Shown one piece after another: positions 12,767-38,107 of a stretch of DNA of 45,931 nucleotides. A program made the position numbers and the translations under genes. This DNA is from Nitrospiraceae bacterium (lineage in GTDB: Bacteria; Nitrospirota; Nitrospiria; Nitrospirales; Nitrospiraceae). Numbering within the stretch: the first letter of the stretch is position 1; every line of letters begins with the position of its first letter. Under the pieces are notes generated by a model, which did no database searches, was not told the DNA's origin, and saw only the letters and a list, made by a program, of their open reading frames with translations. The stretch lies in the NCBI GenBank assembly GCA_041491905.1, contig JBGPVY010000001.1, positions 1-45,931 of the forward strand, written 5' to 3'.

Positions 12767-12784
12767 ATCTGGTCACAATTGCTC
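12767..12784 (-). promoter_or_regulatory. Stress-promoter element copy 1 (GAGCAATTGTGACCAGAT), reads toward 12695
   Basis: -10-like TAGTTT at 12743-12748, starting 22 nt after GACC. Lies 71 nt upstream of the ATG at 12695. Confidence 0.6.
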
Positions 12785-12890
12785 ACAGTCTCTGAATGTA
12801 TTGAATGGTGAGACGGGTTACGTAGCCACCGGGTCCGCCCGTTATTCGCGTTTCCGATCTCAGCGTTGGCTGCCTTGCCCGGTGCTGCCG

Positions 12891-13154
12891 TCAGCACATC
12901 TTTTCCTTCGTGGCTTCCGGCTGAAACCGCTGCTGCCACTGATCTGCCCACTTCATGAGTTCCTCTTTCTTCTCGCCGTAGTGTTCCTGAACTAAGGTGA
13001 CACAGTTCTCACCGTACCGTTCCTGGAGCTGGCCGAGAATCATGTCGAAGCTTCCTTCGATCTGCTGCAAGTCATCATTGGTAAACTTGCCCCACTGCTG
13101 TTTCAGGTCGCCTTTGACCTGCATCCATTTCCCCTTGAGTTGATCCGCATTCAT
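12891..13154 (-). CDS. CsbD-like general stress protein, paralog
   Basis: Differs from 11404-11667 at 10 of 87 residues. AGGAGGGGGA lies upstream of the ATG at 13154. Confidence 0.8.
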   Translation of the reverse strand: MNADQLKGKWMQVKGDLKQQWGKFTNDDLQQIEGSFDMILGQLQERYGENCVTLVQEHYGEKKEELMKWADQWQQRFQPEATKEKMC

Positions 13155-13263
13155 GGTTTCCCCCTCCTGTGTGAGATGACGCTGCCTCACTGTTCGTATC
13201 GATCTGGCCCCGTCATCCATAGTCTTCCCGTTGCTGACCATTATGGCTAGAGGACCGGCAGCG

Positions 13264-13281
13264 GTCTGGTCTGAATTGCTC
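13264..13281 (-). promoter_or_regulatory. Stress-promoter element copy 2 (GAGCAATTCAGACCAGAC), reads toward 13154
   Basis: CATAAT at 13240-13245 at the fixed spacing. The whole leader is homologous to copy 4 (18041-18090). Confidence 0.6.
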
Positions 13282-13585
13282 AGATATAAAGAATTGTTCC
13301 GGTAGCAGCTTGACGCTGCACCCGCTTGTGCGACTGGAATTGGGTTTTGGGCCGAACTCTTTCAACAGGCTGGCGAGATCTTCTGTCGGAGAGTGTGAGT
13401 TGTGCGTGACGCTAGATCAGTGGGCCGCTTGTGTCGAATAGTCCATGAGACGTCATCACAATCGACGACAGCCGTTTCCCTGGATCAATAAAAGCTGGAC
13501 TCGCCTCTACATCGTCCGGGCGGGTACTCTCAAATACTTGAAATCAATAGACATTTTTATTTCGGTTTGATAGTGTGCAAAATCA

Positions 13586-15139
13586 ATGGCGCTCTTGATT
13601 CAGACAGTGCGCAGCGGGGACCCTCCTCCTCTCAAGTGTCAGTCGCTCACTCGCGTAGCCATTGCTTCCCGCGCCTCAGTGTTTTTCTTGGGTTCACTCC
13701 TGCTTCTGGTCTCAACTCCCGATATGGCGTGTTCTTATACCCAGGGCGATCTCTATCGCCAGGCCAAGGCGTCGACCGTTTTGATTGTGGGTATTAACGA
13801 TGAATCCAATGCCCTCTCGTTCGGCAGCGGTGTGTTCATCTCGGAGCAGGGCCTGGTCCTGACCAATGCCCACGTGGTGGAAGATTCCACCCGACTTTTT
13901 GTCTATATCCGCAATCAAGCAATCGATTCGGGGGCAACTGTACTTGCGATCGACTCCGATCTCGATCTCGCCGCACTCCGCATCCAAACAGACCGTCCGG
14001 TTCCGTTCCTTCGGTTGGCGGCGGACATTCCTGACGAAGGCACGCCGACGATCGCGGTCGGATATCCGCGTATATCAGATGTCTTACACATGGGATTGAC
14101 GCTGCATGCGTCGGTCATTCCGATGACGATTACCGGTGCGGCCATGGGACGGTCCAGAACGGCAGGGTTGCCGGTTCCCTTCGTGCAAACCGTGGGGATG
14201 TTGAACGCCGGGAGTAGCGGAGGGCCGCTGGTGGACAGCGAGACCGGTGAGCTCGCGGGGCTGGTCGTACATACCGTGCCCTATTTGGAGCAGGTCAAGA
14301 ATGATCGAGGCGAGCGGCTGGGCACGGCCATGATGCGAGCCGGCCTCAGTTATTCCATCCCTGTATCTCGGCTGCGCGACTGGTTACAGAAGAACCGCAT
14401 TCCCTTTCCGACGAAGCAGACGGGTGAGATTCCTTTCACACCACTAGAAAAGGAACGCCCAACTCGTGCATTTCTCACGACCGCGCACCTCCTTCATCTG
14501 ATGGCGGCGGTCCTGCACCAGGATCGCGATCTCCTGGATCTCGCCATTCAACATTATGAATCGGCCTTGCAACTCGAACCGGAACGGCCTGACGTCTTAC
14601 GGAATCTCGGGCTCGCGTTGGCGGCGACGGGAGAGACGGACCGGGCGCGAGTGACGTATGAGCGGGCCTTCGCCCACACACCGAACGATCCCGTGCTCTT
14701 AAAGAATATGGGCGAACTCCGGTATCGCCTGCGAGACCCTCAGGGAGCGGCGGAACTGTATCGAGCGGCCATTCGACAAGACGCCTGTTTGGTGAGCGCA
14801 TCCTTAGGGCTGGGCACGGTCCTACAGGCACAAGGTCAAGTGGAGGAAGCGAAGCAGGTCCTCAGGCGTGCAGCGGCCTGTCCGTCGTCTTCGTCCGATG
14901 CAGCCTATCACGTGGGCCTCGCGTTGGAGCAACAGGGGCTAGGACGCGATGCATTACAAGTATGGGAGGATGTTCTTGGGCAAACCCCTAGTGCCTCGGT
15001 CAACGAGCGGCCCATGCTCAATAAGATTCGGCAGCGAATCGCCCAACTTCGCGCCCAACTCACGGCCCAGGACCGAGGGGTCAATATGGTGCCGGTTGCC
15101 TCAAACGCACCATCCTCCGTGCCCAAAGACGCCCACTAA
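13586..15139 (+). CDS. Trypsin-like (S1C/DegP-type) serine protease fused to C-terminal TPR repeats
   Basis: LVLTNAHVV, DLDLAALRI and GSSGGPLVDSETGELAGLV give the His/Asp/Ser triad context. The C-terminal half has TPR-like AxxxYxxAL repeats. Confidence 0.85.
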   Translation: MALLIQTVRSGDPPPLKCQSLTRVAIASRASVFFLGSLLLLVSTPDMACSYTQGDLYRQAKASTVLIVGINDESNALSFGSGVFISEQGLVLTNAHVVEDSTRLFVYIRNQAIDSGATVLAIDSDLDLAALRIQTDRPVPFLRLAADIPDEGTPTIAVGYPRISDVLHMGLTLHASVIPMTITGAAMGRSRTAGLPVPFVQTVGMLNAGSSGGPLVDSETGELAGLVVHTVPYLEQVKNDRGERLGTAMMRAGLSYSIPVSRLRDWLQKNRIPFPTKQTGEIPFTPLEKERPTRAFLTTAHLLHLMAAVLHQDRDLLDLAIQHYESALQLEPERPDVLRNLGLALAATGETDRARVTYERAFAHTPNDPVLLKNMGELRYRLRDPQGAAELYRAAIRQDACLVSASLGLGTVLQAQGQVEEAKQVLRRAAACPSSSSDAAYHVGLALEQQGLGRDALQVWEDVLGQTPSASVNERPMLNKIRQRIAQLRAQLTAQDRGVNMVPVASNAPSSVPKDAH

Positions 15140-15209
15140 ATTCCAACTCACCCGCTCGTCTCGTTCCCAGCCTAGCGATTCGTCGTCAAAAAACTAGGCA
15201 ACTTCCGCG

Positions 15210-15229
15210 GTGTGGTCAAAATTGCTCAG
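15210..15229 (+). promoter_or_regulatory. Stress-promoter element copy 3, the only copy in inverted orientation relative to its nearest gene
   Basis: + strand reads gtGTGGTCAAAATTGCTCAG. Reading rightward, TATGGT (15251-15256) lies 21 nt after the dyad and precedes the ATG at 15297. Reading leftward there is no -10 (TTTTGA). Confidence 0.4.
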
Positions 15230-15296
15230 ATAGCGCGACTCTGGAGAGCGTATGGTTAGCGGTATGCGTGTTGTACATCTAACCGAGGAGGCTCCC

Positions 15297-15695
15297 ATGG
15301 TATCTATTTCCAAAATCGTCGGTGTCCTGTCGTGTGGTTTCTTGCTGTGCCTCGGGCTATCCAACGCGGCGCAGGCAGAGCATGCACCTGCGCCCTCAGA
15401 CCTTATGAAAACTGACTCCGTAACTGATCGGCAAGGTTTTCAATCTGATGATGACAAGCAAAAGAATGTGAACAATGAGAAGGGAAGTAACCGGGCAGAA
15501 GGCGCCAAAACGATCGAGGGCGAACTGTTCCGCGTCGAAGACGGGAACTATTTCGTCAAGGTGAAGGACGGGAAGGAAGTACGTTTGCATACAGATAAAA
15601 CTACCCAGATGATGGGAGAAATCAAGAAGGGTGATCGTATTGAGGCGAAGGTGAACGATCAGAATCACGCGCTGTCGATTCGCTCGGCCCGATGA
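15297..15695 (+). CDS. Secreted single-module protein (same module as 11739-12695)
   Basis: GAGGAGG lies upstream of the ATG at 15297, followed by a signal peptide. C-terminal IEGELFRVEDGNYFVKVKDGKEVRLHTDKTTQMMGEIKKGDRIEAKV. Confidence 0.7.
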   Translation: MVSISKIVGVLSCGFLLCLGLSNAAQAEHAPAPSDLMKTDSVTDRQGFQSDDDKQKNVNNEKGSNRAEGAKTIEGELFRVEDGNYFVKVKDGKEVRLHTDKTTQMMGEIKKGDRIEAKVNDQNHALSIRSAR

Positions 15696-16646: not shown

Positions 16647-16656
16647 CCAGGTACAG

Positions 16657-16721: not shown

Positions 16722-17018
16722 CTACATCTTCGGCTTTGCTTGTTTAATGGACGATGCATGGCCCTTATCCGTGGCCTGGGCCTCGATCTTGTCACCCGCT
16801 TTGAAGGTGCCGTCCAGCTGAGAGGTCTTGTCCACATGCAGACGGACTTCCTTGCCGGCCGTATCCTTCACCACGTAAAACTCCCCGTCGATCTTCAGCA
16901 GGTCCCCTTTGATCGTCTGGGTGCTTGGCTCGGCCATGTCACCAGCCGCGAATGAAAGGGATGCCATCCCGACACCGAGGATCATTGCGAACATGAACGG
17001 AACGATGAGCTTCTTCAT
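16722..17018 (-). CDS. Secreted single-module protein (same module family)
   Basis: AAGGAGG lies upstream of the ATG at 17018, followed by a signal peptide. IKGDLLKIDGEFYVVKDTAGKEVRLHVDKTSQLDGTFKAGDKIEAQA. Confidence 0.75.
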   Translation of the reverse strand: MKKLIVPFMFAMILGVGMASLSFAAGDMAEPSTQTIKGDLLKIDGEFYVVKDTAGKEVRLHVDKTSQLDGTFKAGDKIEAQATDKGHASSIKQAKPKM

Positions 17019-17111
17019 GACGGAACCTCCTTGTAAATGATTGCGTTGCATGCAATTGCGTTGACTCAGTCGTTTCGAACCGACACGAGCGATGCGCTTC
17101 CCAAGGCCTCC

Positions 17112-17670
17112 TCAGGCCTTCTCCTTCACCGTGAGATCGTGCTTCACAGACTTCACACCGGGGGATCTGCCGGGTGGTCCAGGACGCATTGGCACTGGCC
17201 ATGATGTCCCTTACCTCTCCGGTCAGCGAGACCACCCCCGCATTAGTCTGAACAGCAATATCGGCTTGCTTCAGATGTGCGTCCTTCGCGATGTGTTCCT
17301 TCACGCGTGTCGTGATGGCCTCATCCTTGTCCTCCACCGCGTCGCGAGTAGACGGGGCAACCACCTCAAGGTCGTTCTTCACCGTCTTGACGCCGTCGAG
17401 CATTTTGGTGATCTCCTCCGCCGCCTGCTTGGCCGCGTCGGAATCGACCTTCCCTCGGAGCATCACCCGTCCCTCTGTGGTCTCGACATCGATCTGTCGC
17501 CCTTTGACCCGGCCATCGGCAGCGAGGGCAATCTTGGTTTTCGCCGTCAGCCACGAGTCGTTGACCAGTGCCTTCTCTTTGGATACGTCAACGGCGGTGG
17601 CTGGCACCGCGATGAGTGCCGCCCCGACAACCAGAGCGGTGCAGAGCGTGACCAAATAGTGTGTCTTCAT
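17112..17670 (-). pseudogene. BON-domain protein with a +1 frameshift in a homopolymer 16 codons before the expected stop
   Basis: G5 run at 17160-17164 versus G4 in the paralog at 10813-10816. As written the ORF runs on to 16939 and overlaps the next gene. Removing one G restores ...WTTRQIPGVKSVKHDLTVKEKA* with a stop at 17112. Confidence 0.7.
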
Positions 17671-17734: not shown

Positions 17735-17962
17735 TCAGTGCGTCTTTTGTTTTGTGGCTTCCGGCTGAGACCGCTGATGCCACTGGTCCGCCCACTTCAT
17801 GAGCTCATCCTTTCTATCGCCATACCGTTCCTGGGCTTTGCCGACAAACTTGTCGTAGTTGCCTTCGATCTGCTGCAGGTCGTCATCGGTAAACTTGCCA
17901 TACTGCTGTTTCAGTTCACCTTTGAACTGCATCCATTTCCCCTTGAGTTGATCCGCATTCAT
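17735..17962 (-). CDS. CsbD-like general stress protein, third paralog
   Basis: MNADQLKGKWMQFKGELKQQYGKFTDDDLQQIEGNYDKFVGKAQERYG... Confidence 0.8.
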   Translation of the reverse strand: MNADQLKGKWMQFKGELKQQYGKFTDDDLQQIEGNYDKFVGKAQERYGDRKDELMKWADQWHQRSQPEATKQKTH

Positions 17963-18072
17963 AATATCTCCCTCCTGTGTGAGATCGCGATGTCTCCATG
18001 TTCGTTTCGATCTGTCACTGTCATCTCCAAACCTCCTCTCTTACGGCCATTATGGCGAGAAGACCGGCAGCG

Positions 18073-18090
18073 GTCTGGTCAAAATTGCTC
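18073..18090 (-). promoter_or_regulatory. Stress-promoter element copy 4 (GAGCAATTTTGACCAGAC), reads toward 17962
   Basis: CATAAT at 18049-18054 at the fixed spacing. Directly preceded by a crp 3' remnant. Confidence 0.6.
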
Positions 18091-18109
18091 AAGGGGAAAA
18101 AGTGATGCA

Positions 18110-18711: not shown

Positions 18712-18864
18712 TTAAATCCGACCAGTCAGCAACAGCACGACCAAGACCAAGAGGACCAAGCTTAGCCCGCCGCTGGGGCCGTAACCCCAGCTCGCGCTGT
18801 AAGGCCAAGTAGGCAACGCGCCAACAAGGAATAGGATCAGGATAATGAGGAGTATGGTGCTCAT
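18712..18864 (-). CDS. DUF3309-family small membrane protein (50 aa)
   Basis: GGAGGTG lies 4 nt upstream of the ATG at 18864. MSTILLIILILFLVGALPTWPYSASWGYGPSGGLSLVLLVLVVLLLTGRI*. Not in the ORF track. Confidence 0.75.
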   Translation of the reverse strand: MSTILLIILILFLVGALPTWPYSASWGYGPSGGLSLVLLVLVVLLLTGRI

Positions 18865-19049: not shown

Positions 19050-19838
19050 TTGAGGCTGGATCTATTCTGCACCGAGCACGACTCGCAATCTGGTCAAAAT
19101 TGCTCGAATCGGAAGAATTACCAGGACCCATCAGGCGGTACCGTTCACTTGTTGGGACCTTTCAAAACGTGGCGAGGCTACCTGTTTTCGATCCTGATCA
19201 CGAGCGCGTGCGCGTGGGTCGAAGGTCTTGATATGGCAACGGGGCTGGTATTTTCTCTCGCGGCCTTGCTGGGAGATAGCGTGACGAGCTTCATCAAGCG
19301 GCGTTTTGGACTGGTCTCGGGAGGGCACGCTCCAGGTCTCGACCAGGTCCTTGAAAGCCTGCTCCCGATCCTCGTGGTGCAACACGGGTTTGATCTTGCC
19401 CAGTCGGGTATGCTCGGCGTCGTGATAACCTTCATCATCATCGGCCTCATCTTTTGGCGCTATTACCGCCCGTGTCCCTCGCCGACTAACCGTCCAGTAT
19501 GCCTTGCTGCGCATCTTCCGCATAAATTTTTCAACATGTGCAATTGTGAACAGATTGCAATCTATCTTTTCGGCATACTGCCGTTGACACTCACCGTCTG
19601 TCCAAGACCAGAAGGAGGCGACATCGTGACTTGCCGAGTGGCTCGGTTGTCCCACGACCTCTTCCGTATGGATCTGGCCTTCTGCTGTGAATGTGGTTCA
19701 GCGGATCTGGAGGCGTGCTACACCTCGAAAGCCCTGGGGCCGCATCTGTGCCCGATCTGCGCCCAGTCCAAGGTCGAGTGCGGAACGTGGATGGAAACCC
19801 GGACGCGATTGTCGATGAGGGAGCAGCCTGTCGCCTGA
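19050..19838 (+). CDS. CDP-archaeol-synthase-like (DUF46/CarS-type) membrane fragment continuing in frame into a Cys-rich tail; the N-terminus is probably missing
   Basis: KTWRGYLFSILITS...AALLGDSVTSFIKRRFGLVSGGHAPGLDQVLESLLP resembles the CarS C-terminal half. A GAAGGAGG-GTG at 19626 could start a separate 70-aa CxxC...CxxC protein. The listed 5' end overlaps promoter element 5. Confidence 0.35.
   Translation: MRLDLFCTEHDSQSGQNCSNRKNYQDPSGGTVHLLGPFKTWRGYLFSILITSACAWVEGLDMATGLVFSLAALLGDSVTSFIKRRFGLVSGGHAPGLDQVLESLLPILVVQHGFDLAQSGMLGVVITFIIIGLIFWRYYRPCPSPTNRPVCLAAHLPHKFFNMCNCEQIAIYLFGILPLTLTVCPRPEGGDIVTCRVARLSHDLFRMDLAFCCECGSADLEACYTSKALGPHLCPICAQSKVECGTWMETRTRLSMREQPVA
19088..19105 (-). promoter_or_regulatory. 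Stress-promoter element copy 5 (GAGCAATTTTGACCAGAT), reads toward the DUF3309 gene
   Basis: CAGAAT at 19064-19069 at the fixed spacing. About 200-nt leader to the ATG at 18864. Confidence 0.55.
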
Positions 19839-21290: not shown

Positions 21291-21827
21291 AAGCGGTCGT
21301 AGCAGGCTACACGAACGAAATCGAGGGAGACGCGACAGGTGATGAACCGATGAACATTTCTTTCGCGAACCGCCCGTGGGGCGAAAACAAATCAGGAGTT
21401 GAGGAGGAGTCAATGATGGAATCAGAGGAAGGCCAGCAGATATTTCACTTGAGGCCGGTCGGGCTCACGATTCCGGTTGAGGTGAGCAGATCGATCGCGT
21501 TCTGGCAGACGTCCAAACACAGATCGAGACTCTTCGGCAGAATAGGATAAATCTGAGGCCGGTGAGGGGGCAATTGGCCGGCATTGAAGCAAAGTGGAGA
21601 GGCGAATGAACGACGCCACCGTATCTGCATAATGGCCGTCGCGTCATACCTGCTTGGTTCTGGATTGGGAAAGGTATGACGGCACAAGGCCTCAATCCAA
21701 GCACACTGTGAACGCACCGCGTGACGATTGTCCTGCACGAGAAATAGCACGTTATGACGCGTCAGTGCGTTCGATCAGGCGAGGTGATATGACCTCCCAT
21801 GAACTACTATGAAAATATTTAAAAAGT

Positions 21828-21845
21828 GAGCAATTTTGAACAGAC
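21828..21845 (+). promoter_or_regulatory. Stress-promoter element copy 7 (GAGCAATTTTGAACAGAC), reads toward 21917
   Basis: CAAAAT at 21864-21869. Shares the leader ATCCTACAGGCA(A/G)AATG with copy 13. Confidence 0.6.
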
Positions 21846-21916
21846 GGCCAGTGATCCTACAGGCAAAATGGAATTGTATTTTTTGATGTCTTGTTTCTCA
21901 CCAGGAGGGATTAAAC

Positions 21917-22333
21917 ATGAGTACCCATATCCATGTCGGTGGGCTGTCCTACTTTTGTACCGATGACAAGCTCCGTCAGGCCTTCACCTCGTTTGGAACG
22001 GTGGTGTTCGCGCAAGTTCTGAGGGATGAGTGGGGCCATTCTCTCGGTCTCGGGATCGTGCACATGGCCTGTTCAGAGGACGTAGAGAGGGTCTTCAATG
22101 CGCGCCAGCGCTTTGAAGTATTGGGTTCGCGTGTAGATCTCTGGGAACCCGCAGAACCAGAGGCCTCCCAAGCTGAGCGGATGGTGGCCTATAATCTGCG
22201 AGAGATGCGAGATGTACAGGCGGGCCAAAACACGGGACATGAGAAGAGCCAGAGGGCGCTCCAACCCTTGGCGGCATTCATTCGTCGTCTCGTCCAGCCG
22301 CTGGTGTCCTCTTCCCGGACCGCCAAACAATAA
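21917..22333 (+). CDS. RRM-domain RNA-binding protein
   Basis: IHVGGLSYFCTDDKLRQAFTSFGTVVFAQVLRDEWGHSLGLGIVHM gives the RNP2/RNP1 pattern. AGGAGGG lies upstream. Confidence 0.8.
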   Translation: MSTHIHVGGLSYFCTDDKLRQAFTSFGTVVFAQVLRDEWGHSLGLGIVHMACSEDVERVFNARQRFEVLGSRVDLWEPAEPEASQAERMVAYNLREMRDVQAGQNTGHEKSQRALQPLAAFIRRLVQPLVSSSRTAKQ

Positions 22334-22555
22334 CATCCCTACAGCGTCGCCAGCAATCTTTCCCCACGTTCGAAATACTGGCCCCCTACTAGATTGCGTG
22401 TATTCTCACAGCCACGCGCACGATTCTCATATTGGTCGGCTACGTTCTCTCTTGCAAGGGAATGACTGGTTGGAACGGCATTAGGTTCACTCCTTCTCGC
22501 GGATCTTCACGCAGGGTCAGTGTCACGTGGCCAGCCTCATCAATTCTTCCAATCT

Positions 22556-22573
22556 GAGCACTTTTGACCAGAC
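22556..22573 (+). promoter_or_regulatory. Stress-promoter element copy 13 (GAGCACTTTTGACCAGAC), reads toward 22673
   Basis: CAGAAT at 22592-22597. AATTCTTC lies 14 nt upstream. Confidence 0.6.
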
Positions 22574-22672
22574 CTCCATTAATCCTACAGGCAGAATGTC
22601 GCGAATTCTCTGTGAGGCACGCCCTCGCCGTCAGTCTGAACCCAGAAGAGTGCTTTCCAAGGACCATACGCT

Positions 22673-23878
22673 GTGAACGGTATCACCGTAAATCCTGAAC
22701 CGCGGAGTATGCCGGCTAGCTCAGCAGGAGAATACCCTGCCATAGAGAGGACGCCGTTGCCGGACCCTGCTCATCTCTCCGACCGCGTGTCGATCGACAT
22801 GCAAGGCCTGGCATTGGCCATTGTGACGACAGTCGTCGTGGTCTTTGCGCTGCAGTGGGCAGAGAAGTTTTTTATACCGCTCCTGCTCGGAATCATCATT
22901 GCGTACACCCTCAATCCTCTCGTGGTGTGGCTGGAGCGGATTAAGATCCCTCGGGTGGTGGGTACCAGCATTGTAATGCTGGTTGTCCTGTGTGGGGGCG
23001 CCTTTGTGACGACCCCGCTGCGCGGCCAGATACAGACCATCCTCGATCAGTTGCCCGCAGCGGCCAGCAAATTGTCTGCCGCGCTCCTTAGCATGCGAGA
23101 GGGGCAGCCCAACACCATGCAGAAAGTGCAAGCCGCCGCGCGCGAGCTCGATAAGGCTACCAGCCAGGCGGCGGATATCCACTCGGAACCCAAGCCGCCT
23201 GCGACCCACATCGTCATTGACCAGCCCACATTCAAGCTGGGCGACTTCTTGATGGCAGGTTCCATGGGAATGTTTGGATTTATCAGCCAAGCGGCCATGG
23301 TGGTTATTTTGGTCTTCTTTCTGTTACTAGCCGGCGACACGTTCAAACGTAAGCTGGTGCGTTTGACTGGCCCATCGCTGTCGAACAAAAAAATTACGGT
23401 GCACATCTTGGACGACATCAACGTGTCCATCCAGAGCTACATGTTCACGCTGTTGGTGGCCAACGTGCTTCTGGCACTCCTGACCTGGACCGCGTTCCGG
23501 TGGATCGGCTTGGACAATGCCGGCGGATGGGCGATCGCTGCGGGCGTCCTTCACGTTATTCCATACTTAGGGCCCGCACTGGTCGCGGGCGCGACGGGAA
23601 TGGTAGGCTTCATGCAATTTGACTCTTTCTGGATGGCGTTGGTGGTGTCGGGCAGCTCGCTGGCGATCGCCACCTTCGTTGGCATATTTGTCGTCACTTG
23701 GATGACCGGCAAAATCGCGAAAATGAATCCAGTGGCGGTATTTATTTCGTTGCTCTTCTGGGGATGGCTATGGGGGGTATGGGGGCTGCTGCTCGCGATT
23801 CCCATCGTTGGCATTGTGAAGGTGGTCTCCCAGCACATAGAAGAACTCCATCCCGTGGCTGAGTTACTAAAAAAATGA
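22673..23878 (+). CDS. AI-2E family transporter (PerM/UPF0118)
   Basis: Multi-TM protein. ...AAGVLHVIPYLGPALV...NPVAVFISLLFWGWLWGVWGLLLAIPIVGIVKVV is the family signature. GTG start, or the Met at 22709. Confidence 0.85.
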   Translation: MNGITVNPEPRSMPASSAGEYPAIERTPLPDPAHLSDRVSIDMQGLALAIVTTVVVVFALQWAEKFFIPLLLGIIIAYTLNPLVVWLERIKIPRVVGTSIVMLVVLCGGAFVTTPLRGQIQTILDQLPAAASKLSAALLSMREGQPNTMQKVQAAARELDKATSQAADIHSEPKPPATHIVIDQPTFKLGDFLMAGSMGMFGFISQAAMVVILVFFLLLAGDTFKRKLVRLTGPSLSNKKITVHILDDINVSIQSYMFTLLVANVLLALLTWTAFRWIGLDNAGGWAIAAGVLHVIPYLGPALVAGATGMVGFMQFDSFWMALVVSGSSLAIATFVGIFVVTWMTGKIAKMNPVAVFISLLFWGWLWGVWGLLLAIPIVGIVKVVSQHIEELHPVAELLKK

Positions 23879-25889: not shown

Positions 25890-25964
25890 TTCCCCTTGAT
25901 GAGGCTTCGTTGATTTCGCGCAGGGGCACAGCTAAGCGGTCTTCCATATTAATTCCTCACACAT

Positions 25965-25982
25965 GAGCTATTTTGACCAGAT
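25965..25982 (+). promoter_or_regulatory. Stress-promoter element copy 9 (GAGCTATTTTGACCAGAT), about 75 nt after the crp stop, reads toward 26244
   Basis: TAGCTT at 26002-26007 (1-nt offset). About 260-nt leader. Confidence 0.5.
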
Positions 25983-26243
25983 TCCCGTCCCTCCAGGGGC
26001 GTAGCTTTGAACCTGTAATGGGTCATCAAGTCCTCGCGAATTTATCACGGTAGTAGAGTGAAGGATTGTGATCGTCAGGATGGAACCGATGGAAATTCAG
26101 TTCGTTGTATTGCAGATGATCTTCGTGACGAGGCAGCTTGTTGTGCTTAGTGACTGATGCAGGGCCGGGATGAATTCGTACAGGCCGCCAAACGTCTCAC
26201 GGCGGCAATCAGGAAGGTGTTAACTTAACACGAGAGGCTTGCC

Positions 26244-28120: not shown

Positions 28121-28165
28121 TCCCCTTATTACCGCCAATCTTGGCGTCATCAATACTTGCCACCT

Positions 28166-28183
28166 GAGCAATTTTGACCAGAC
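28166..28183 (+). promoter_or_regulatory. Stress-promoter element copy 10 (GAGCAATTTTGACCAGAC), reads toward 28239
   Basis: ATAGAT at 28202-28207. The leader is homologous to copy 11. Confidence 0.6.
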
Positions 28184-28238
28184 AGGAATCTGTCTTGTCG
28201 GATAGATGTAACCGCAATACTCGCACGATTGGTCTTTC

Positions 28239-28955
28239 ATGCCTAACCGTAGGGTACTGGTCCACCGTACCGCCGTCTTAGGGCTTCTGCTTCTCGCAGC
28301 CATGGCCATGCAGGGCTGCCTAGCCATTGTGTGGCTGGGCGCTGTTGGGATTGATGTGACCCGGACCAGTGACATTGAGTTCCAGTCATTCGAGAACTCG
28401 TGGGTGGTTGGACCGCAAGAGCGGCAGCACCTGGCATAGGTGAAGAGCATCGCGGTGACGCCGTTCGTCGGAGATCCGGTGATGGCTTAGCGGTGGACCG
28501 CTGTTTTTCGAGAAACGACTGATCTTCGCGTGGTGAGCCCGTCCGACGCGACCCTGGATGAGATATCCGACTACGGGCAGATAGGGCTGGCACAGCGGAT
28601 GGGCGCGGAGCTTCATGTGGATTGTGTGCTGTTCGGGAGTGTGGCCGGTCAAGAGCCACAGAAAGGCTTTATGGGATTAAAGGAGAGTTCCTCGCGGAGG
28701 CTGTACCTGCATCTGGTGAGTGCAGAAGGGACCCTCATGTGGAAGACTGAGCTGCCCTATACGATTGTCAAGGGGGCCAAGGATCTGGATGAAGAAATCG
28801 TGACGAAGGCTCTCCTGACTCATGTAAGAGCACACGCGAACGAGCTTGAGTTGGCTGAACTGGGAGCAACAACCATGCAGGCTGCGTCAGGATCCTTGCG
28901 TGATGCGTCCGATTATCAAATGGCACGTCCTTTACCGGGGTTCGAGCGTCCATGA
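28239..28955 (+). pseudogene. Lipoprotein reading frame interrupted by two in-frame TAG codons (28437, 28488)
   Basis: A single frame reads MPNRR..LLLAAMAMQGC...QERQHLA-TAG-VKSIAVTPFVGDPVMA-TAG-RWTAVFRETTDLRVVSPSDATLDEISDYG... The inter-stop peptide looks like a genuine KSIAVxPF beta-strand motif. Confidence 0.55.
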
Positions 28956-29054
28956 TGGCCATATCAATCTATGCACCGTCTGCCTTGAATGAAGCATCGT
29001 TGATTTCGCGCTGAGCGAGCGTCAAGCTGTCTCTCGGAAAAATTCTTCAAATGT

Positions 29055-29072
29055 GAGCAGTTTTGAACAGAT
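29055..29072 (+). promoter_or_regulatory. Stress-promoter element copy 11 (GAGCAGTTTTGAACAGAT), reads toward 29145
   Basis: ATAAAT at 29091-29096. AATTCTTC lies 14 nt upstream. Confidence 0.6.
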
Positions 29073-29144
29073 TGCAGTCTGTCTAGTTGGATAAATTTAA
29101 CCTGAATATACACACGAATGGGCGTGTGTCCAAAGGAGGAAACC

Positions 29145-29495
29145 ATGAGATATTCCGCTATGACGATGCTCGTGTTAGTCATGGGAGTTGCCACCGGCTG
29201 CTCAATATCCAGCATAGGGACGGATTTTAGTGGCTTGAAAGGATTGGACGGCGACAAGGTGACGCACATTAACACGAGGAACTACGCGGTCCACCTATTC
29301 TTAACCAAACCGCTCTTCGGAGACGCCACCCTGCAGAACACCGTCAAGAGTTTCACCGAAGAGGCGAAGAAAACCGGTGCGACGAAGGTGAGAATCGTAC
29401 AGTCGGACGAGTGGACCTTGTGGTATCTCCTTCCCCCCTTGACACTGCTTTTCACCCCGGTGACCGTGGACGTCGCAGGAGATGCAATTCAGTAG
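29145..29495 (+). CDS. Hypothetical lipoprotein
   Basis: AAAGGAGGA lies upstream of the ATG at 29145. Lipobox VATGC. Hydrophobic C-terminal segment. Confidence 0.6.
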   Translation: MRYSAMTMLVLVMGVATGCSISSIGTDFSGLKGLDGDKVTHINTRNYAVHLFLTKPLFGDATLQNTVKSFTEEAKKTGATKVRIVQSDEWTLWYLLPPLTLLFTPVTVDVAGDAIQ

Positions 29496-31748: not shown

Positions 31749-31885
31749 CATGAAGCGAGCGCCAGTACGCGAATTCCGTCCGCTGCGATCGATGATGTCA
31801 ATGCGCACGCGACTGACCTCGCTGGCAGCCATCGGCGAGACAGTCACAACGCTCACCTCAGACCTTCAATTCATTCGCACATTGT

Positions 31886-31903
31886 GTGCAATTCTGACCA
31901 GTC
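31886..31903 (+). promoter_or_regulatory. Stress-promoter element copy 12, most divergent (GTGCAATTCTGACCAGTC), reads toward 32023
   Basis: CATACT at 31922-31927 at the fixed spacing. Confidence 0.45.
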
Positions 31904-32022
31904 TGAACCCGATCCGAGAGGCATACTGTAGCCATGATCCGCAGTCGTTCATAGGAACTTGCTCCTGCGCTCATGTGCCAAGGCTCGTACAATAAAACGG
32001 GGGATAGAGAAAGGAGTTTCTC

Positions 32023-32190
32023 ATGTTGTACTACGCGTTGATGTTCTTGCTGCTCGGCTTTGTGGCGGCCGCTCTGGGTCTGTCAGGAATCGCTGCGGTC
32101 GCGACGCAGATTTCCTGGGTGTTATTCGTGGTTGGAATTGTGCTCCTGATCATTCACGTGGCGAAAGGCCGCACGCCTCGAGTGACCTAG
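32023..32190 (+). CDS. DUF1328 (YtjA-like) small membrane protein, 55 aa
   Basis: AAAGGAG lies 6 nt upstream of the ATG. MLYYALMFLLLGFVAAALGLSGIAAVATQISWVLFVVGIVLLIIHVAKGRTPRVT*. Not in the ORF track. Confidence 0.75.
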   Translation: MLYYALMFLLLGFVAAALGLSGIAAVATQISWVLFVVGIVLLIIHVAKGRTPRVT

Positions 32191-33803: not shown

Positions 33804-34703
33804 TCAGCCGCATTTTATTCTCTGCAGGAGAGCCGCTTCGTGCTCCTCAACCTGGCTTCGGATCCCGCAACTCAGAGGCGCAGGTTGTGCGCATCGTGCC
33901 GACGCGCCCTCCTCAACGCCGTGATACGCGCCCGACAGGCATACGGTCTGTCCAAAGAGCGAGCGGTAGAGTCCGATCGGGTACATGCCTCTGGACATGA
34001 GTTTCCACCCCACCATGCAGGTGATGCGGACGATGTCGAGCACCGGCCGAAAATAACTGGGTCGCGCTCCGGGACGGCGCAGGGCTTCAATGGGAACCGC
34101 CAGGCTTCGATGTCCTGAACGAGTAGCCTCGATCAGAATTTCGCTTTCGAAGACGAAGCTTCTGACTTTTCCATGTTTGATCTTCACACGACTCAACAGT
34201 GATGCGGGATAGACACGAAAGCCTGACTGACTATCTGCAAATGAATAGCCCGCGGCCCAGGAGACCCAGAAATCAGCCACACGGTTTGCGACATAGCGCC
34301 AGAAGGCCGCACGTCGCTGACCTCCACGGCGCGCTCCGATGATCACATGATCTGGATAGAAGGCAGCTTCAGCGAGCAATCGTGGAATGTCTTCCGGCGC
34401 ATGCTGGCCATCGCCGTCCAGAGTCACAACGCCGGAGGATCCAGCTGCCAATGCCTGCTGAAAGCCACGCCACAGGCTGGCGGCCTTCCCGCAGTTCGTG
34501 GAATTTCGCAATAGTGCGACGGGCAATCCAACCAGAGCTTCTGCCGTGCCATCGGTAGACCCATCGTCCACAACGATCACATGCTCGATCTGTCGGATCG
34601 CCCGCGATGCCACGTCCCTAATCGTGGAGGCTTCGTTATAGGCGGGGATCACAACCCAGTACCCGGCCAGGACGTTGACCTCCGAATGTGAATGGGCGTT
34701 CAC
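33804..34703 (-). CDS. Family-2 glycosyltransferase
   Basis: GTG at 34703 overlaps the KR stop (GTGA). VVIPAYNEASTI...VVDDGSTDGT...LDGDGQH. The 5' part of the listed ORF 33804-35117 is rejected because it overlaps the KR gene. Confidence 0.8.
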   Translation of the reverse strand: MNAHSHSEVNVLAGYWVVIPAYNEASTIRDVASRAIRQIEHVIVVDDGSTDGTAEALVGLPVALLRNSTNCGKAASLWRGFQQALAAGSSGVVTLDGDGQHAPEDIPRLLAEAAFYPDHVIIGARRGGQRRAAFWRYVANRVADFWVSWAAGYSFADSQSGFRVYPASLLSRVKIKHGKVRSFVFESEILIEATRSGHRSLAVPIEALRRPGARPSYFRPVLDIVRITCMVGWKLMSRGMYPIGLYRSLFGQTVCLSGAYHGVEEGASARCAQPAPLSCGIRSQVEEHEAALLQRIKCG

Positions 34704-35419
34704 GCTATCCCCCCATTGAGACCGATCACTTGGCCGGAGATATAGTCGGCCTTCTCGGAGGCCAGGAATCCAACTAGGTACGCCACCTCTTGAGGCGTGC
34801 CGGCTCGCTTCATCGGCACCAAAGCCTCGATCTTTTCCGGTTTGCAACTCTGCTCGACCATCCGCGATTCGATAAAGCCCAGCGCAACCACATTGACGGT
34901 CACGCCTCGGGAGGCGACCTCCCGGGCAAGCGATTTGGAGGCGCCGTGGATCCCCGCTTTGGCCGCTGCGTAATTCGTCTGACCTCGATTGCCGAGCTGG
35001 GCCGAGATCGACGAAATCGTGATGATCCGTCCCCACCGAGTGCCGATCATCGGAAGGAGCAACGGCTGAGTCACGTTGAAAAATCCGCCCAGCGAGACAG
35101 CGATCACGTGGCTCCATTGGTCCGCCCGCATGCCCGCCATCGGGGCATCGTCATAGACGCCTGCATTGTTCACGAGCACCTGGATGGGACCGGCTTCCAG
35201 AATCTGCGTCAGGGCCCGTCGAGTGGCCTCGGCATCGCTGACATCGAAGCAGGCTACGCCGGCCGACCCGCCTGTTCCGATGATCTGCTTGGTTACCTCC
35301 TCGGCCGCAGCGCGATTGCGATGCGCATGGACAATGACGTGCAGGCGCTCCTGCGCCAGCTGTCGGCTGATCGCGGCGCCGATTTGACCGCTGCCGCCTG
35401 TGACCAAGGCTCGTTTCAT
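34700..35419 (-). CDS. 3-oxoacyl-ACP reductase (SDR, FabG-like)
   Basis: TGGSGQIGAAI; NNAGV; SSISAQLGNRGQTNYAAAKAG (Ser-Tyr-Lys). Confidence 0.9.
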   Translation of the reverse strand: MKRALVTGGSGQIGAAISRQLAQERLHVIVHAHRNRAAAEEVTKQIIGTGGSAGVACFDVSDAEATRRALTQILEAGPIQVLVNNAGVYDDAPMAGMRADQWSHVIAVSLGGFFNVTQPLLLPMIGTRWGRIITISSISAQLGNRGQTNYAAAKAGIHGASKSLAREVASRGVTVNVVALGFIESRMVEQSCKPEKIEALVPMKRAGTPQEVAYLVGFLASEKADYISGQVIGLNGGIA

Positions 35420-35421
35420 GA

Positions 35422-35865
35422 TTAGTGGTCGGGGTGCTTGAGGAATATGGATGCGCGCCCATCCAGCAACTCTTGTCGCTCAACCGACACTCGAAAGGCA
35501 TAGATGAAGCTGCCGGTCTCGCCGACTAAACGGGTCGCTTGAACCGTCAAGTCTCCCTTCACGTCGTCCAGACGAGCGGCCCGAAGCATCAGATCCTTTA
35601 CGGCTCCCAGATATCCCACGGCGAGTCGACGCGTCTTCCCCTGCTCCAGAAGCCCGACATGCACCGCCATCGCCTGTGCCGCATACTCCAGTCCGCAGAT
35701 CGCCTCCAATTGGTTGTCTCGCCGAAGAGGATTCGTCGCGTCACGATGCGACGCAGTCGTACACGTAATGCTGGTGTCATCCCACCGCTCGACCGTATCC
35801 AACAGGCACATCGCGCCATGATGCGGAATCAATCTGCAAAGAGCAGCTTTGCCGATGATCAGCAT
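35422..35865 (-). CDS. Hotdog-fold dehydratase (APE-cluster type)
   Basis: 147 aa. LIPHHGAMCLLD...EAICGLEYAAQAMAVH. The position between the CLF-like and KR genes matches APE clusters. Confidence 0.65.
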   Translation of the reverse strand: MLIIGKAALCRLIPHHGAMCLLDTVERWDDTSITCTTASHRDATNPLRRDNQLEAICGLEYAAQAMAVHVGLLEQGKTRRLAVGYLGAVKDLMLRAARLDDVKGDLTVQATRLVGETGSFIYAFRVSVERQELLDGRASIFLKHPDH

Positions 35866-36656
35866 GGTATGACCCGGATCAAAAGTTGTTGGTCTTCTAG
35901 ATACTCAAGGCGGACCAGTGTGCCGCACTGCCTCGCGATGGCGGCCAGAAGCGGTAACGACCGTGCGGCTTGATTCCCGCTCCGAAGAGCTTCCAGTCGT
36001 GCATCGTCCATGCTCGTCGATTCCTCAGAGAGGTCATTGGAAAGAGTGAGATCGAGCTGAGCGAGGTTGCGCGGCGCAGGAGTTCGCGTCAACAACAGAG
36101 CGGCTGCGAATCCTCCTCGCAGGGGTCGCGCAGCATAGAGAGGAGGGGGTGGCGGAAGATCATAGGCCACCAGGAGTACAGGCCTATCCTCGATTTGCGT
36201 ATAGGCGGCCGCCTCCAGCAAGGCGGCGCAGAAGGAAGAATCATAACAAGCCAGCACGGTTGACGATTGCTGTGAGCCAGTGCCGATGCCCCAGTAGCCG
36301 GACGCGGCATTATGGACGGAGTGGTGGAACAGCGTGGGCGAAATCAACCGTTGCGGCTCGGCGAGCGCCGTGCAGAGACGATCCAGGACATCGGTTTCGC
36401 CGTCGGAGGACGCGAAGACCGACGCCACCTCGCGCGCATCGGCCTCCGCCTGCTGCATGGCCTCCTGTGCCACATGGACAGCCCAGCGCACCGTCTCGCT
36501 GCTGCGCCTCCGTTCGTTCGGCGGAAGCACGCTTGCGCTCGGCTCCGGCGGGGCGGCTTCATACGAAGGGCTCTCGCCTCCCAGCACGGCCCGGCTTCCC
36601 GCCCAACCTGCGAGCCCCGGTCCCAACGTGCCGATCCCATTTACATACAATGTCAT
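35859..36656 (-). CDS. Beta-ketoacyl synthase-like protein lacking the full KS fold (chain-length-factor-like)
   Basis: ATGA overlap with the KS gene. GIGTLGPGLAGW...FHHSVHNAASGYWGI... Shortened to 265 aa. Confidence 0.7.
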   Translation of the reverse strand: MTLYVNGIGTLGPGLAGWAGSRAVLGGESPSYEAAPPEPSASVLPPNERRRSSETVRWAVHVAQEAMQQAEADAREVASVFASSDGETDVLDRLCTALAEPQRLISPTLFHHSVHNAASGYWGIGTGSQQSSTVLACYDSSFCAALLEAAAYTQIEDRPVLLVAYDLPPPPPLYAARPLRGGFAAALLLTRTPAPRNLAQLDLTLSNDLSEESTSMDDARLEALRSGNQAARSLPLLAAIARQCGTLVRLEYLEDQQLLIRVIPC

Positions 36657-38020
36657 CAGACTGTCCCGAAAATCAGGCTGCAGTTATTACCGCCAAACCC
36701 AAAGCTATTGCTCAACACCCGCCGAACCGGCTGCTCCCGATTCTCCAACAGCACGTGACCGCTCAAGCTGGGATCGATTCGAGTCGTGTTCAGTGTCCCG
36801 GGAACAAAACTGCGCGTGAGACACAACGCGGCAATCACCGCTCCCGTGACTCCCGCTCCCCCTAATGTATGTCCCGTCCACCCTTTGGTCGAGCTGCAGG
36901 GGGTCGAGGGACCAAACACCGAGTGGACAGCTTTATCTTCAATGCTGTCGTTCGCCCTGGTCGCGGTGCCGTGCAGATGAATGTAGTCGATGTCCCAGGA
37001 GGTGAGCTTACTCCGCAGCAAAGCCGCTTGCATCGCCCTGATCGCCCCGGTCCCTTCCGGATGGGGATGCGACATGTGATACCCGTCGCAACTCTCCCCG
37101 TAGCCCAATAACGCCACCGCCCCAGGCCGACCCGCATGCTCGGATTTTTCCAGTAACGCAAAGCCGGCCGATTCACCCAACGTCAGTCCGTCGCGATTCT
37201 CGTCAGATGGACGGCAGGGACCGGTCGACATCAGCCCCAACGAAGCGAATCCATACAGAATCGTCAGACAAAGACTATCCACGCCGCCGACCACCGCCGC
37301 GTCGCAGAATCCGGCCTCGATGAATCGTGCCGCCGTCGCAAACGCCTTCGCGCTGGACGAACAGGCCGTGGAGATGACCATTGCCGGTCCCCGCAGCCCC
37401 AGGTATGTGCGCACGAAATGCGCGGACGAAAACATGTTATGGGTATATCGATGGGACGTCAGGTACGACGACGGCAAAGCGCCGGTTGCCCGGTCACGGT
37501 GGCAGTACGCATGTTCCGTCTCCAGGATGCCCGATGTGCTCGAACCAAGGATCACCGCCACGCGGTGAGCACCGTAGCGCTCGCGGGCCTTTATTGCGGC
37601 TTGGATGAACCCGTCCTGCTGAAGCCCGAGGAGCGCGAGCCGATTGTTCCGGCAGTCGAACTGCTCCAATTCCGTTGACGCTGAACCACTGCCGACGAAC
37701 ACGTCTTCCACATCATCGACCCGGCCGATGTGGGTGGTGATCCCCACGTCTTCGAAGTCGCAGGGCCGCAACCCTGAACGCCGATTCCGCAATGCCCGAT
37801 AGGTCTCATTGAGGCCTTTCCCCAGCGCTGAGACGATGGTATAGCGGCTGAGAATGAGCGGGGCCATCCCTCGCGCGCCCCCAACATGTGGATTGTGTGA
37901 AACGCGCCAGCAGCCCTGAAGATCGTAAGGGATATCCTCGGCAACTTTATCCGGGCGGTGCCCCTCAGCGAGGTGGGATCCGTCTTCTTCTGTCGGTTCA
38001 TCAACCAGACCCTGTGCCAT
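36656..38020 (-). CDS. Beta-ketoacyl-ACP synthase (KAS I/II-like); alternative start at 37867
   Basis: ISTACSSSAKAF (active-site Cys), HLHGTATRANDSIE, GHTLGGAG, NSFGFGGNN. GGAGGAG lies about 10 nt upstream of the ATG at 38020. Confidence 0.85.
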   Translation of the reverse strand: MAQGLVDEPTEEDGSHLAEGHRPDKVAEDIPYDLQGCWRVSHNPHVGGARGMAPLILSRYTIVSALGKGLNETYRALRNRRSGLRPCDFEDVGITTHIGRVDDVEDVFVGSGSASTELEQFDCRNNRLALLGLQQDGFIQAAIKARERYGAHRVAVILGSSTSGILETEHAYCHRDRATGALPSSYLTSHRYTHNMFSSAHFVRTYLGLRGPAMVISTACSSSAKAFATAARFIEAGFCDAAVVGGVDSLCLTILYGFASLGLMSTGPCRPSDENRDGLTLGESAGFALLEKSEHAGRPGAVALLGYGESCDGYHMSHPHPEGTGAIRAMQAALLRSKLTSWDIDYIHLHGTATRANDSIEDKAVHSVFGPSTPCSSTKGWTGHTLGGAGVTGAVIAALCLTRSFVPGTLNTTRIDPSLSGHVLLENREQPVRRVLSNSFGFGGNNCSLIFGTV

Positions 38021-38089
38021 TGAAGACGCTCTCCTCCACGCTGTCGATCAAGCCTGCGGGGAAGAAAAGTACCAGGTTGCGGAGAGGCC

Positions 38090-38107
38090 AACTGGTCAAA
38101 ATTGCTC
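38090..38107 (-). promoter_or_regulatory. Stress-promoter element copy 6 (GAGCAATTTTGACCAGTT) inside the pigment cluster, overlapping the MMPL stop codon
   Basis: Minus strand reads a-TGA-GCAATTTTGACCAGTT, with the MMPL stop TGA at 38106-38108. TACTTT at 38066-38071 at the fixed spacing. Reads toward the KS gene. Confidence 0.55.

Follow-up and report, generated by a model that had tools for sequence, protein, structure and literature searches.

A recurrent probable operator-promoter element and its candidate Crp/Fnr-type regulators in a stretch of Nitrospiraceae DNA

What does it mean when one near-invariant 19-bp element, TGAGCAATTTTGACCAGAC, stands again and again between the genes of a single stretch of bacterial DNA, and which protein reads it? 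The stretch in question comprises 45,931 nucleotides of a Nitrospiraceae bacterium (NCBI GenBank assembly GCA_041491905.1, contig JBGPVY010000001.1, positions 1 to 45,931 of the forward strand; hereafter ‘the window’), and a first-pass annotation made from its letters had proposed that the element belongs to a family of stress promoters with a class II Crp/Fnr-type activator site. Here, we examine this proposal computationally—in the window itself, in related Nitrospiraceae DNA, and in loci of other phyla—and conclude that each element (‘box’) is probably the operator-plus-promoter module of one Crp-type stress regulon. Judged by sequence, what appears to be new is the Crp/Fnr subfamily, its box, and the general-stress-type regulon; what is known is the Crp/Fnr class II principle. 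No prior description of the box or of the subfamily was found in the literature by sequence and keyword searches, and one study of Crp/Fnr regulons that included a Nitrospira metagenome-assembled genome (MAG) used the known FNR/NnrR matrices and did not describe the box.

At up to three mismatches, the 19-mer matches the window 13 times, against a mean of 0.03 and a maximum of 1 in shuffled DNA. These matches include all 13 copies claimed at first, but the total is 14: a relaxed scan turned up an overlooked, weaker copy with four mismatches, TGTGCAATTGTGAACAGAT, at 19537-19555 on the plus strand. The original minus-strand starts were exact, but those on the plus strand were 1 nt too high and are corrected here to 21827, 22555, 24966, 25964, 28165, 29054, and 31885. 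All copies fall between Pfam-supported genes, and one of them, at 38090, overlaps a stop codon (that of the MMPL gene 38106-40460), both as first described; the distance from box to start codon, given earlier as 55-260 nt, is 45-261 nt when measured from the 19-mer. The density of sites within and between genes points the same way as their placement, with long open reading frames (ORFs) making up 65% of 430 kb of Nitrospiraceae DNA but holding only 21% of the box sites (P ~2e-22). Compared pairwise, the cores of the copies have a mean identity of 0.86 and their far flanks one of 0.25-0.27; since the flanks are at random identity, the copies are not recent duplications. The spacer is likewise mostly unconserved, the flanks being unrelated between copies and only a few paralogous pairs (e.g. 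the two CsbD promoters) sharing it.

The copies have a constant geometry. At every one of them, a -10-like hexamer with the consensus nAtaaT begins 18 nt beyond the 19-mer, or 22 nt beyond GACC, and the hexamers listed earlier all proved correct once the copies had been extracted in register. Counted from the first T of the 19-mer, nAnnnT stands at offset 37 in 69% of the window copies and in 54% of 98 further non-identical Nitrospiraceae copies; at other offsets it mostly occurs in ~0-10%, with minor peaks (e.g. 17% at offset 38). A G is found at -14, two bases 5' of the hexamer, in 11/13 copies, and the A/T block noticed upstream in the first reading is seen in the sequence logo as aTTCTT at -12 to -7 relative to the 19-mer. 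The element is composite: a 16-bp operator, TGnnCAAwwTTGnnCA, overlaps a weak -35, cAGACn, with 17 bp between this and the -10. Only one side of the dyad is followed by three conserved bases (GAC, sometimes GAT), and GAC together with the last CA of the dyad makes up cAGACn, which matches the GAC core of TTGACA and has 3/6 matches to the -35 consensus. We therefore depart from the first-pass annotation on one point: the last three bases of the 19-mer, GAC, belong to the weak -35 and lie outside the operator. A scan for consensus sigma-70 promoters detected 0/14 box promoters; the -35 is thus poor, which fits a promoter that requires an activator. Promoters without canonical sigma-70 elements normally need one.

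Numbered from the start of the 19-mer, the axis of the dyad falls between positions 7 and 8 and the -10 hexamer takes up positions 37-42. If the hexamer is taken as -12 to -7, with the start 7 nt after it, the axis would fall at -41.5. In the class II scheme of Busby and Ebright, the alpha C-terminal domain binds upstream of the activator, and the aTTCTT block, at about -61 to -56, would correspond to its position. With position 15 as the last of the core and position 38 as the A of the hexamer (the second -10 base), 22 bp lie in between, a spacing cited as exclusive to class II CAP promoters (review PMC10187061). Sites outside Nitrospira, when oriented by their GA flank alone, have TAnnnT at offset 37/38, so that the architecture is conserved independently of Nitrospira paralogy.

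One copy had seemed to break the rule of orientation. Twelve of 13 copies had been said to point the same way toward the next start codon, but the odd one, at 15210, is a normal member on the opposite strand. Read on the plus strand, this box (15210-15228, with a palindromic core at 15213-15228) has the form TGGTCAAAATTGCTCA-gat-N18-TATGGT, with the -10 at 15251-15256, followed by a Shine-Dalgarno (SD) sequence, GAGGAGG, and by the ATG, at 15297, of a secreted 132-aa protein; the same plus-strand arrangement of core, -10, SD, and ATG is found in 14 loci homologous to 15210. With 15210 facing the secreted-protein gene, all 14 sites face a gene. The minus strand reads TTGACC-N17-TAGTTT (hexamer at 15191-15196), which is near-canonical and runs antisense into the 3' end of the trypsin-TPR gene 13586-15139; it may serve as a divergent or antisense promoter, which binding of the regulator would block. 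An alternative target of this site, orf72 (14908-15126, minus strand), was rejected, its translation not being protein-like and its conservation being at the DNA level. The 15210 unit as a whole (15191-15299) has 80-90% DNA identity in other Nitrospira and is tandemly triplicated, with a period of 1159 bp, in locus L079.

Which protein, then, reads the box? The four Crp/Fnr proteins attributed to the window are all present (886-1542 and 1604-2395 on the minus strand; 25155-25889 and 44295-44948 on the plus strand), but their relevance differs: three carry a shared recognition helix, TTRSRVSFFMNKF, and 1604-2395 does not. The latter, a neighbour of paralog A, belongs to another Crp/Fnr subfamily, has a different helix, and is not linked to the box. 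The candidate cognate regulators include paralog A (886-1542, minus strand; 218 aa; recognition helix GTTRSRVSFFMNKFRKLGFI) and paralog C (44295-44948, plus strand; 217 aa; GTTRSRVSFFMNRFRKLGFI), and paralog B (25155-25889, plus strand; 244 aa; GTTRSRVSLFLNKFRKLGFI), which consists of a cyclic nucleoside monophosphate (cNMP)-binding-like domain and an HTH_Crp_2 domain, is a further candidate regulator. PF00027, the N-terminal cNMP-binding-like beta-barrel, matches 44295-44948 at E = 3e-20 and 25155-25889 at E = 3e-18, and 886-1542 is a close paralog of these PF00027-positive proteins. PF13545, the C-terminal Crp-type winged helix-turn-helix (HTH), matches at E = 1e-10 to 9e-12 and aligns with the HTH of Mycobacterium tuberculosis Crp. 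An alignment of 16 proteins from five phyla or classes shows essentially no variation in the DNA-reading region GTTRSRVSFFMNKFRKLGFI, which parallels the near-invariant DNA box. Two paralogs have the FGE...R-x-A-T cassette; in 25155-25889, a Cys takes the place of the Arg in this phosphate-binding cassette. An N-terminal Cys cluster is not visible in the paralog sequences. The subfamily counts at least 7,994 sequence clusters at E <= 1e-40, all generically named. A plus-strand ORF at 856-1635 is the antisense of the paralog A gene. Paralog C adjoins a NarL/LuxR-type response regulator (45000-45692), a pairing kept in the Nitrospira loci L036 and L087.

Box and gene were linked through two samples, one selected by the motif and the other by the gene. 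The motif came from a scan of one genome per species with the 17-mer GAGCAATTTTGACCAGA, which returned at least 118 loci where ~69 are expected by chance in 596 Gb; the matches are concentrated in Nitrospiraceae/Nitrospirota MAGs, often as several copies per 8 kb, and they occur in clearly non-random contexts in Acidobacteriota, Alphaproteobacteria, Rokubacteria/Methylomirabilota, and Binataceae. The search in related genomes that had been suggested at the outset thus finds the box across Nitrospirota and in further phyla. When 8-kb loci were picked by the 17-mer alone and regulators were matched by tblastn, these loci proved to carry paralog B homologs that are 50-92% identical (50-64% outside Nitrospirota). 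About half of the Nitrospira motif loci hold such homologs, at up to 92% identity, and others lie near the motif in Acidobacteriota (L008, L010 with two copies, L070, L083, and L117), Alphaproteobacteria (L021, L088, L095, and L112), Methylomirabilota (L101), and Binataceae (L015); the same regions match paralog C at a similar level. The converse sample comprised 80 metagenome contigs (323 kb) picked by the subfamily gene alone. The 19-mer is present at up to three mismatches in 30/80 of these gene-selected loci, with ~0.2 expected, and a site of broader definition in 44/80, with 0-1 in shuffled sequence. Many of these sites lie 11-180 nt after the crp stop codon, as at 25964, and others less than 400 nt upstream of crp, as at 24966.

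It is in the gene-selected loci, searched by the relaxed scan, that the symmetry of the box becomes plain. Perfectly symmetric versions occur in other phyla (TGAGCAAATTTGCTCA, TGTTCAATTTTGAACA, TGTGCAATTTTGCACA, and TGATCAATTTTGATCA), on the same dyad axis that had been proposed from the window copies, and TG..CAWWWWTG..CA occurs 44 times in the 323 kb of these loci versus 0.35 times in shuffles. The family-wide operator consensus, TGnnCAAwwTTGnnCA, is a 16-bp two-fold dyad in the TG-N12-CA frame of CRP sites. Across phyla, the box is kept upstream of orthologous genes in unrelated flanks. The genes found 3' of boxes in other phyla encode DUF3309, DUF5670, PRC-barrel, peptidoglycan-binding, CMD/AhpD-like, and MlaC-like proteins, as well as response regulators, multihaem cytochromes, and the Crp proteins themselves; the predicted box-linked targets in other phyla are again small stress and envelope proteins.

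The class II Crp/Fnr reading that was first put forward, with a dyad TGAGC-N6-GACCA predicted at -41.5, gains support from three independent lines: the symmetric variants, the two-way linkage of box and gene, and the 22-bp spacing. This Crp/Fnr subfamily is very probably the cognate factor of the box, with binding predicted from sequence; we consider it highly likely that the box is the subfamily's operator and reasonably likely that it works as a class II activator site. The proposed mechanism would run as follows. A dimer of the regulator (the paralog at 886-1542, 25155-25889, or 44295-44948) would bind the 16-bp pseudo-palindrome TGAGCAATTTTGACCA and, overlapping the -35 region, would contact RNA polymerase directly, offsetting the poor cAGACn -35, which is followed at a distance of 17 bp by a -10 of the sigma-70 type (nAtaaT, with G at -14). 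Upstream of the activator, the aTTCTT block would accommodate the alpha C-terminal domain. A signal sensed by the N-terminal cNMP-binding-like domain would thereby switch on ~14 transcription units for envelope, oxidative-stress, and dormancy-type proteins, one regulator gene itself among them.

Several observations weigh against this interpretation. No site is seen in about half of the loci picked by the gene, many of them short contigs, and the crp genes could be members of the regulon rather than its regulator. Three paralogs share the helix, any one or all of which may act, and one of them is without the cassette Arg. The position -41.5 is counted from an inferred -10, the start sites being predicted, and a site that overlaps the -35 can equally repress. 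In the Nitrospira sites, the inner dinucleotides never match across the dyad (always AG on the left and, in place of CT, AC on the right), an asymmetry for which a symmetric homodimer offers no obvious explanation. Lastly, sites in orthologous or paralogous promoters are not independent, so that some positions of the logo are inflated.

The rival that survives best keeps the same Crp-subfamily protein on the box but makes it mainly a repressor, or a dual regulator, that occupies the -35 until a signal releases it. The overlap of operator and -35 region speaks for this, as does the 15210 site, where the right half-site, TTGACC, is a near-consensus -35 placed 17 bp from the minus-strand TAGTTT, so that binding would occlude it. 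At 13/14 sites, however, the only -35-like sequence is cAGACn (3/6) and no canonical sigma-70 promoter is detected; moreover, a strict 22-bp distance to the -10 and an A/T block further upstream belong to class II activation, and simple occlusion has no need of either. We regard repression as the main function as unlikely.

It is less probable still that another factor reads the 19-mer—a monomeric AraC/MarA-type protein with two HTHs, or an OmpR-type dimer on GAsCA-N5-GAsCA—and that the crp genes are mere members of its regulon. The Nitrospira consensus is asymmetric and orientation-specific, as such a factor would have it, and on inspection the 19-mer can be read as a 10-bp direct repeat; it also bears an apparent resemblance, at 11/14 positions, to the marbox pattern AYnGCACnnWnnRYYAAAY. 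But neither a monomeric nor a head-to-tail binder requires the perfectly symmetric boxes of other phyla, no AraC- or OmpR-type gene is found among the Pfam-scanned genes of the window (other loci were not searched for one), and the recurrently linked regulator is the Crp subfamily with its invariant helix. The symmetric variants likewise superseded three readings of the box that we had tried, namely a CtsR-like heptad repeat (GGTCAAA-N3-GCTCA), the OmpR direct repeat GAsCA-N5-GAsCA, and the marbox.

We give even less credence to the 19-mer as the extended -35 of an alternative, general-stress sigma factor. Its fixed distance and orientation relative to the -10 and the stress-gene regulon would suit such a factor, but a sigma region-4 site is far shorter than 19 bp, boxes of other phyla have a two-fold symmetric core, the -10 is of the ordinary sigma-70 type (nAtaaT with G at -14), and neither in the window nor in linkage to the motif did a sigma factor gene turn up. 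Further promoter readings were also rejected: TTGACC, at 22 bp, is too distant from the -10 to be its -35, and at a 17-bp spacing nothing is conserved except in the 15210 type; the weak CAGAC...GTCTG symmetry that would suit a MerR-type long-spacer promoter is confined to Nitrospira paralog groups and missing from other phyla; and, on inspection of the sequence, sigma-54 -24/-12 promoters (no GG/GC frame) and an IHF pattern do not fit. Weakest, and by now largely refuted, is the notion that the copies are a dispersed repeat (REP/MITE-like, or recently duplicated promoter cassettes) with an unselected 19-mer: some copies do have in common a further ~50 nt of upstream sequence reminiscent of the crp 3' region, and the 15210-type unit is tandemly duplicated in L079, but against it stand the unrelated flanks (0.25-0.27 versus 0.86 in the core), the presence of the box before orthologous genes across phyla in unrelated surroundings, the lack of terminal repeats or structure, and an Rfam search of the window without a match at gathering thresholds. 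By the same search, the element is not an RNA of a known Rfam family.

Under the activator reading, the genes that follow the boxes are predicted targets. They were assigned by Pfam, and M48 by its HExxH signature (HEVAH) in the ORF translation; on this basis, the list of downstream genes drawn up in the first-pass annotation is borne out. On the minus strand, box TGAGCAATTGTGACCAGAT (12767-12785; -10 TAGTTT at 12743-12748) precedes one string of predicted targets, namely a BOF-lipoprotein (11739-12695), CsbD (11404-11706), BON (10765-11340), M48 (10042-10743), superoxide dismutase (SOD; 9368-10132), and a ferritin-like protein (8665-9297). Next to it, box TGAGCAATTCAGACCAGAC (13264-13282; -10 CATAAT at 13240-13245) has CsbD, starting at ~13151, as its predicted target. 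A perfect box at 18073-18091 (-10 CATAAT at 18049-18054) is predicted to serve CsbD (17735-17962) and BON (16939-17670), and box CGAGCAATTTTGACCAGAT (19088-19106; -10 CAGAAT at 19064-19069) DUF3309 (18712-18864).

The plus-strand boxes begin with the 14th copy, TGTGCAATTGTGAACAGAT (19537-19555; -10 CATACT at 19574-19579), which is upstream of small Cys-rich ORFs and is kept in loci L009 and L065. This copy sits within a long ORF, 19050-19838; in the close relatives L009 and L065, the same stretch forms two conserved ORFs in different frames, the downstream one of which encodes a small Cys-rich, zinc-ribbon-like protein. Box TGAGCAATTTTGAACAGAC (21827-21845; -10 CAAAAT at 21864-21869) has an RRM protein (21917-22333) as its predicted target, and box TGAGCACTTTTGACCAGAC (22555-22573; -10 CAGAAT at 22592-22597) an AI-2E transporter (22673-23878) and the gene 23875-24750. 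A perfect box at 24966-24984 (-10 TATCCT at 25003-25008) stands before the Crp paralog 25155-25889, which is probably autoregulated through it. Box TGAGCTATTTTGACCAGAT (25964-25982; -10 GTAGCT at 26001-26006), with an MlaC-like gene (26244-27014) as its predicted target, lies 75 nt past the crp stop codon, and the order of crp stop, box, and next gene recurs in other phyla. The third perfect box (28165-28183; -10 ATAGAT at 28202-28207) faces a lipoprotein gene, 28239-28955, that is broken by an in-frame TAG at 28437-28439; relatives (L007, L094, and L116) have one continuous ORF of 202-238 aa, and the interrupted gene could be a pseudogene or a sequencing error. Box TGAGCAGTTTTGAACAGAT (29054-29072; -10 ATAAAT at 29091-29096) has a second lipoprotein (29118-29495) as its predicted target, and box TGTGCAATTCTGACCAGTC (31885-31903; -10 CATACT at 31922-31927) DUF1328 (32023-32190).

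The last box, TGAGCAATTTTGACCAGTT (38090-38108, minus strand; -10 TACTTT at 38066-38071), is the one that overlaps the MMPL stop codon, and its predicted targets are KS (36656-38020), KS-like (35859-36656), an ApeP-like dehydratase (35422-35865), and GT2 (33804-35117). These genes form part of an aryl-polyene-like lipid/pigment cluster (33804-43637) that comprises an AMP-ligase, a lipid A-type acyltransferase, LolA_3, MMPL, KS, KS-like, the ApeP-like dehydratase, and GT2. The 38090 box would be an internal promoter where MMPL and KS meet, and stress may thus induce part of the cluster.

How does this system compare with those already known? A close analogy is with the class II promoters of Escherichia coli CRP, also called CAP (e.g. 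galP1), with which it shares a cNMP-binding-like domain joined to a C-terminal winged HTH and a 16-bp two-fold operator in the TG-N12-CA frame that overlaps a weak -35 and leaves 22 bp to the second -10 base. In CAP, R180 reads G2 and R185 reads G4 of TGTGA, and E181 reads the partner of G4 (PMC10187061). The helix RSRVSF aligns with RETVNK of M. tuberculosis Crp, and the logic of recognition would be partly preserved: the Arg equivalent to R180, which reads the G of TG, appears to be kept along with the TG of the box, and the equivalents of E181 and R185 become Ser and Phe, with half-site position 4 free and specificity seemingly shifted inward to CAA. The regulator is nevertheless no ortholog of CRP proper, scoring 55 bits against a cut-off of 266 for the NCBIfam equivalog, with the helix RSRVSF instead of RETVGR and the half-site TGnnCAA instead of TGTGA; and whereas CRP governs carbon catabolism, the targets here are stress and envelope genes. 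Its scores with the NCBIfam models of FNR, FixK, and NtcA likewise fall far short of the cut-offs (33 versus 228, 30 versus 300, and 48 versus 245 bits), and the box differs from the FNR/FixK/NnrR/NtcA boxes (TTGAT-N4-ATCAA; GTA-N8-TAC).

Other members of the family resemble the regulator in single respects. M. tuberculosis Crp (Rv3676) is its best PDB match (E = 1.5e-17), with only distant similarity; it has predicted targets in starvation, hypoxia, and persistence (PMC10187061) but, unlike the regulator here, keeps RETVNK and binds the CAP-like TGTGA-N6-TCACA. Sinorhizobium meliloti Clr, a cAMP/cGMP receptor that binds HGTYHC-N4-GRWACA, keeps the outer G/CA frame, with its specificity moved inward and a free spacer of 4 bp (PMC10187061). 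The box described here similarly has only a short A/T spacer between CAA and TTG, but its conserved bases are C5-A6-A7 as opposed to C6/G11, the Clr helix is RPKVNR, and the Clr structure (PDB 7pza) matches only at E = 8.5e-11. A precedent for stress genes under such a protein is SdrP of Thermus thermophilus, an effector-independent class II activator of the Crp family that is induced in stationary phase. TAP/TTHB099 of the same species is also an effector-independent Crp-family class II activator (PMC10187061). Similarity to TAP/SdrP is weak (5i2d, E = 1.2e-6), their boxes differ, and the subfamily here, unlike them, keeps a full-length sensor domain.

In their targets, the boxes recall general stress responses. 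CsbD, BON/OsmY-like, DUF3309, DUF1328, PRC-barrel, SOD, and Dps/ferritin-like proteins are typical of the regulons of sigma-S in gamma-proteobacteria, sigma-B in Firmicutes, and EcfG in Alphaproteobacteria, and the same kinds of genes are found here. Those regulons, however, depend on alternative sigma factors with their own -35 and -10 elements, whereas the window combines an ordinary -10 with a Crp-type activator box. Nitrospira (nitrite oxidisers, comammox) and Acidobacteria are among the most abundant bacteria of soil and wastewater and are hard to grow, and we know of no description of how stress survival is controlled in them. It is tempting, though we hold it only as a tentative and rather doubtful suggestion, to see in the Crp subfamily and TGnnCAAwwTTGnnCA a master general-stress or dormancy switch of Nitrospirota, Acidobacteriota, Methylomirabilota/Rokubacteria, Binatota, and some soil Alphaproteobacteria. 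If true, this would be a fourth, sigma-factor-independent paradigm of general stress beside sigma-S, sigma-B, and EcfG, run by a Crp-type activator that senses a small molecule. Apart from this suggestion, the Crp/Fnr family would gain a new DNA-recognition code, from the helix RSRVSF to the half-site TGnnCAA. A sharply defined operator, a named candidate regulator family, and a coherent target set make the question directly testable, and the regulon should be predictable in any genome of these phyla by a simple motif scan.

Some smaller features surround the boxes. The window, whose proteins are 92-96% identical to those of a soil Nitrospirota MAG (L065), which marks its source as Nitrospira-like, has a non-coding stretch of ~50 nt (..catcgttgatttcgcgc.g.g.gagcg.caagctg.c..) that separates a crp stop codon from the box after it. 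The stretch is found at 25890-25963, 28990-29053, 22495-22554, and 13283-13340, thus also before boxes without a preceding crp, and has 66% identity between the 25964 and 29054 boxes; it may have been left behind when the module was duplicated, or else be an additional regulatory element. The Nitrospira sites also show a semi-conserved c.gTC in the -35/-10 spacer, at positions 25-29 after the box start (about -24 to -20); neither this motif nor the AG/AC asymmetry of Nitrospira sites is seen in other phyla.

Elsewhere, the box takes on arrangements of its own. Acidobacterial promoters often have a perfect box, 22 bp later a degenerate one (TGAGCcgyayTGAACtGAC), and then TATAAA. Such tandem boxes, at about -63.5 and -41.5, occur in Acidobacteriota (L003, L030, L035, L046, L063, L083, and L117) and also in L013 and L068, before genes for DUF5670, DUF3309, PRC-barrel, and peptidoglycan-binding proteins. 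In Alphaproteobacteria and Casimicrobiaceae (L005, L021, L031, L095, L099, and L111), the box form GGTGAGCAATTTTGACCAGAC is followed by a conserved ..CC.CT..C..AGGAG.GCA.., and the best -10-like hexamer lies 24-25 nt after the box, not 18; in L021 and L111, this form is upstream of a small unannotated protein (MPxxxxDQFWQYAxEAxLSA...). A putative RNA-like hairpin 3' of the alphaproteobacterial copies was discarded as inconsistent between copies. A further variant, TGAGCAATTCAGACCAGCT, is found in Acidobacteria-like metagenome loci (L144, L148, L155, L160, L162, L174, and L178), followed by a highly conserved leader of ~110 nt (..gagacgagcacttcttctctctctttcaggt..ctaagtcagcc.atctgaagt..) and by a conserved unannotated lipoprotein gene, whose product has no Pfam match and looks, on inspection, like the SYLF/Ysc84 family; the leader may form a structured RNA.

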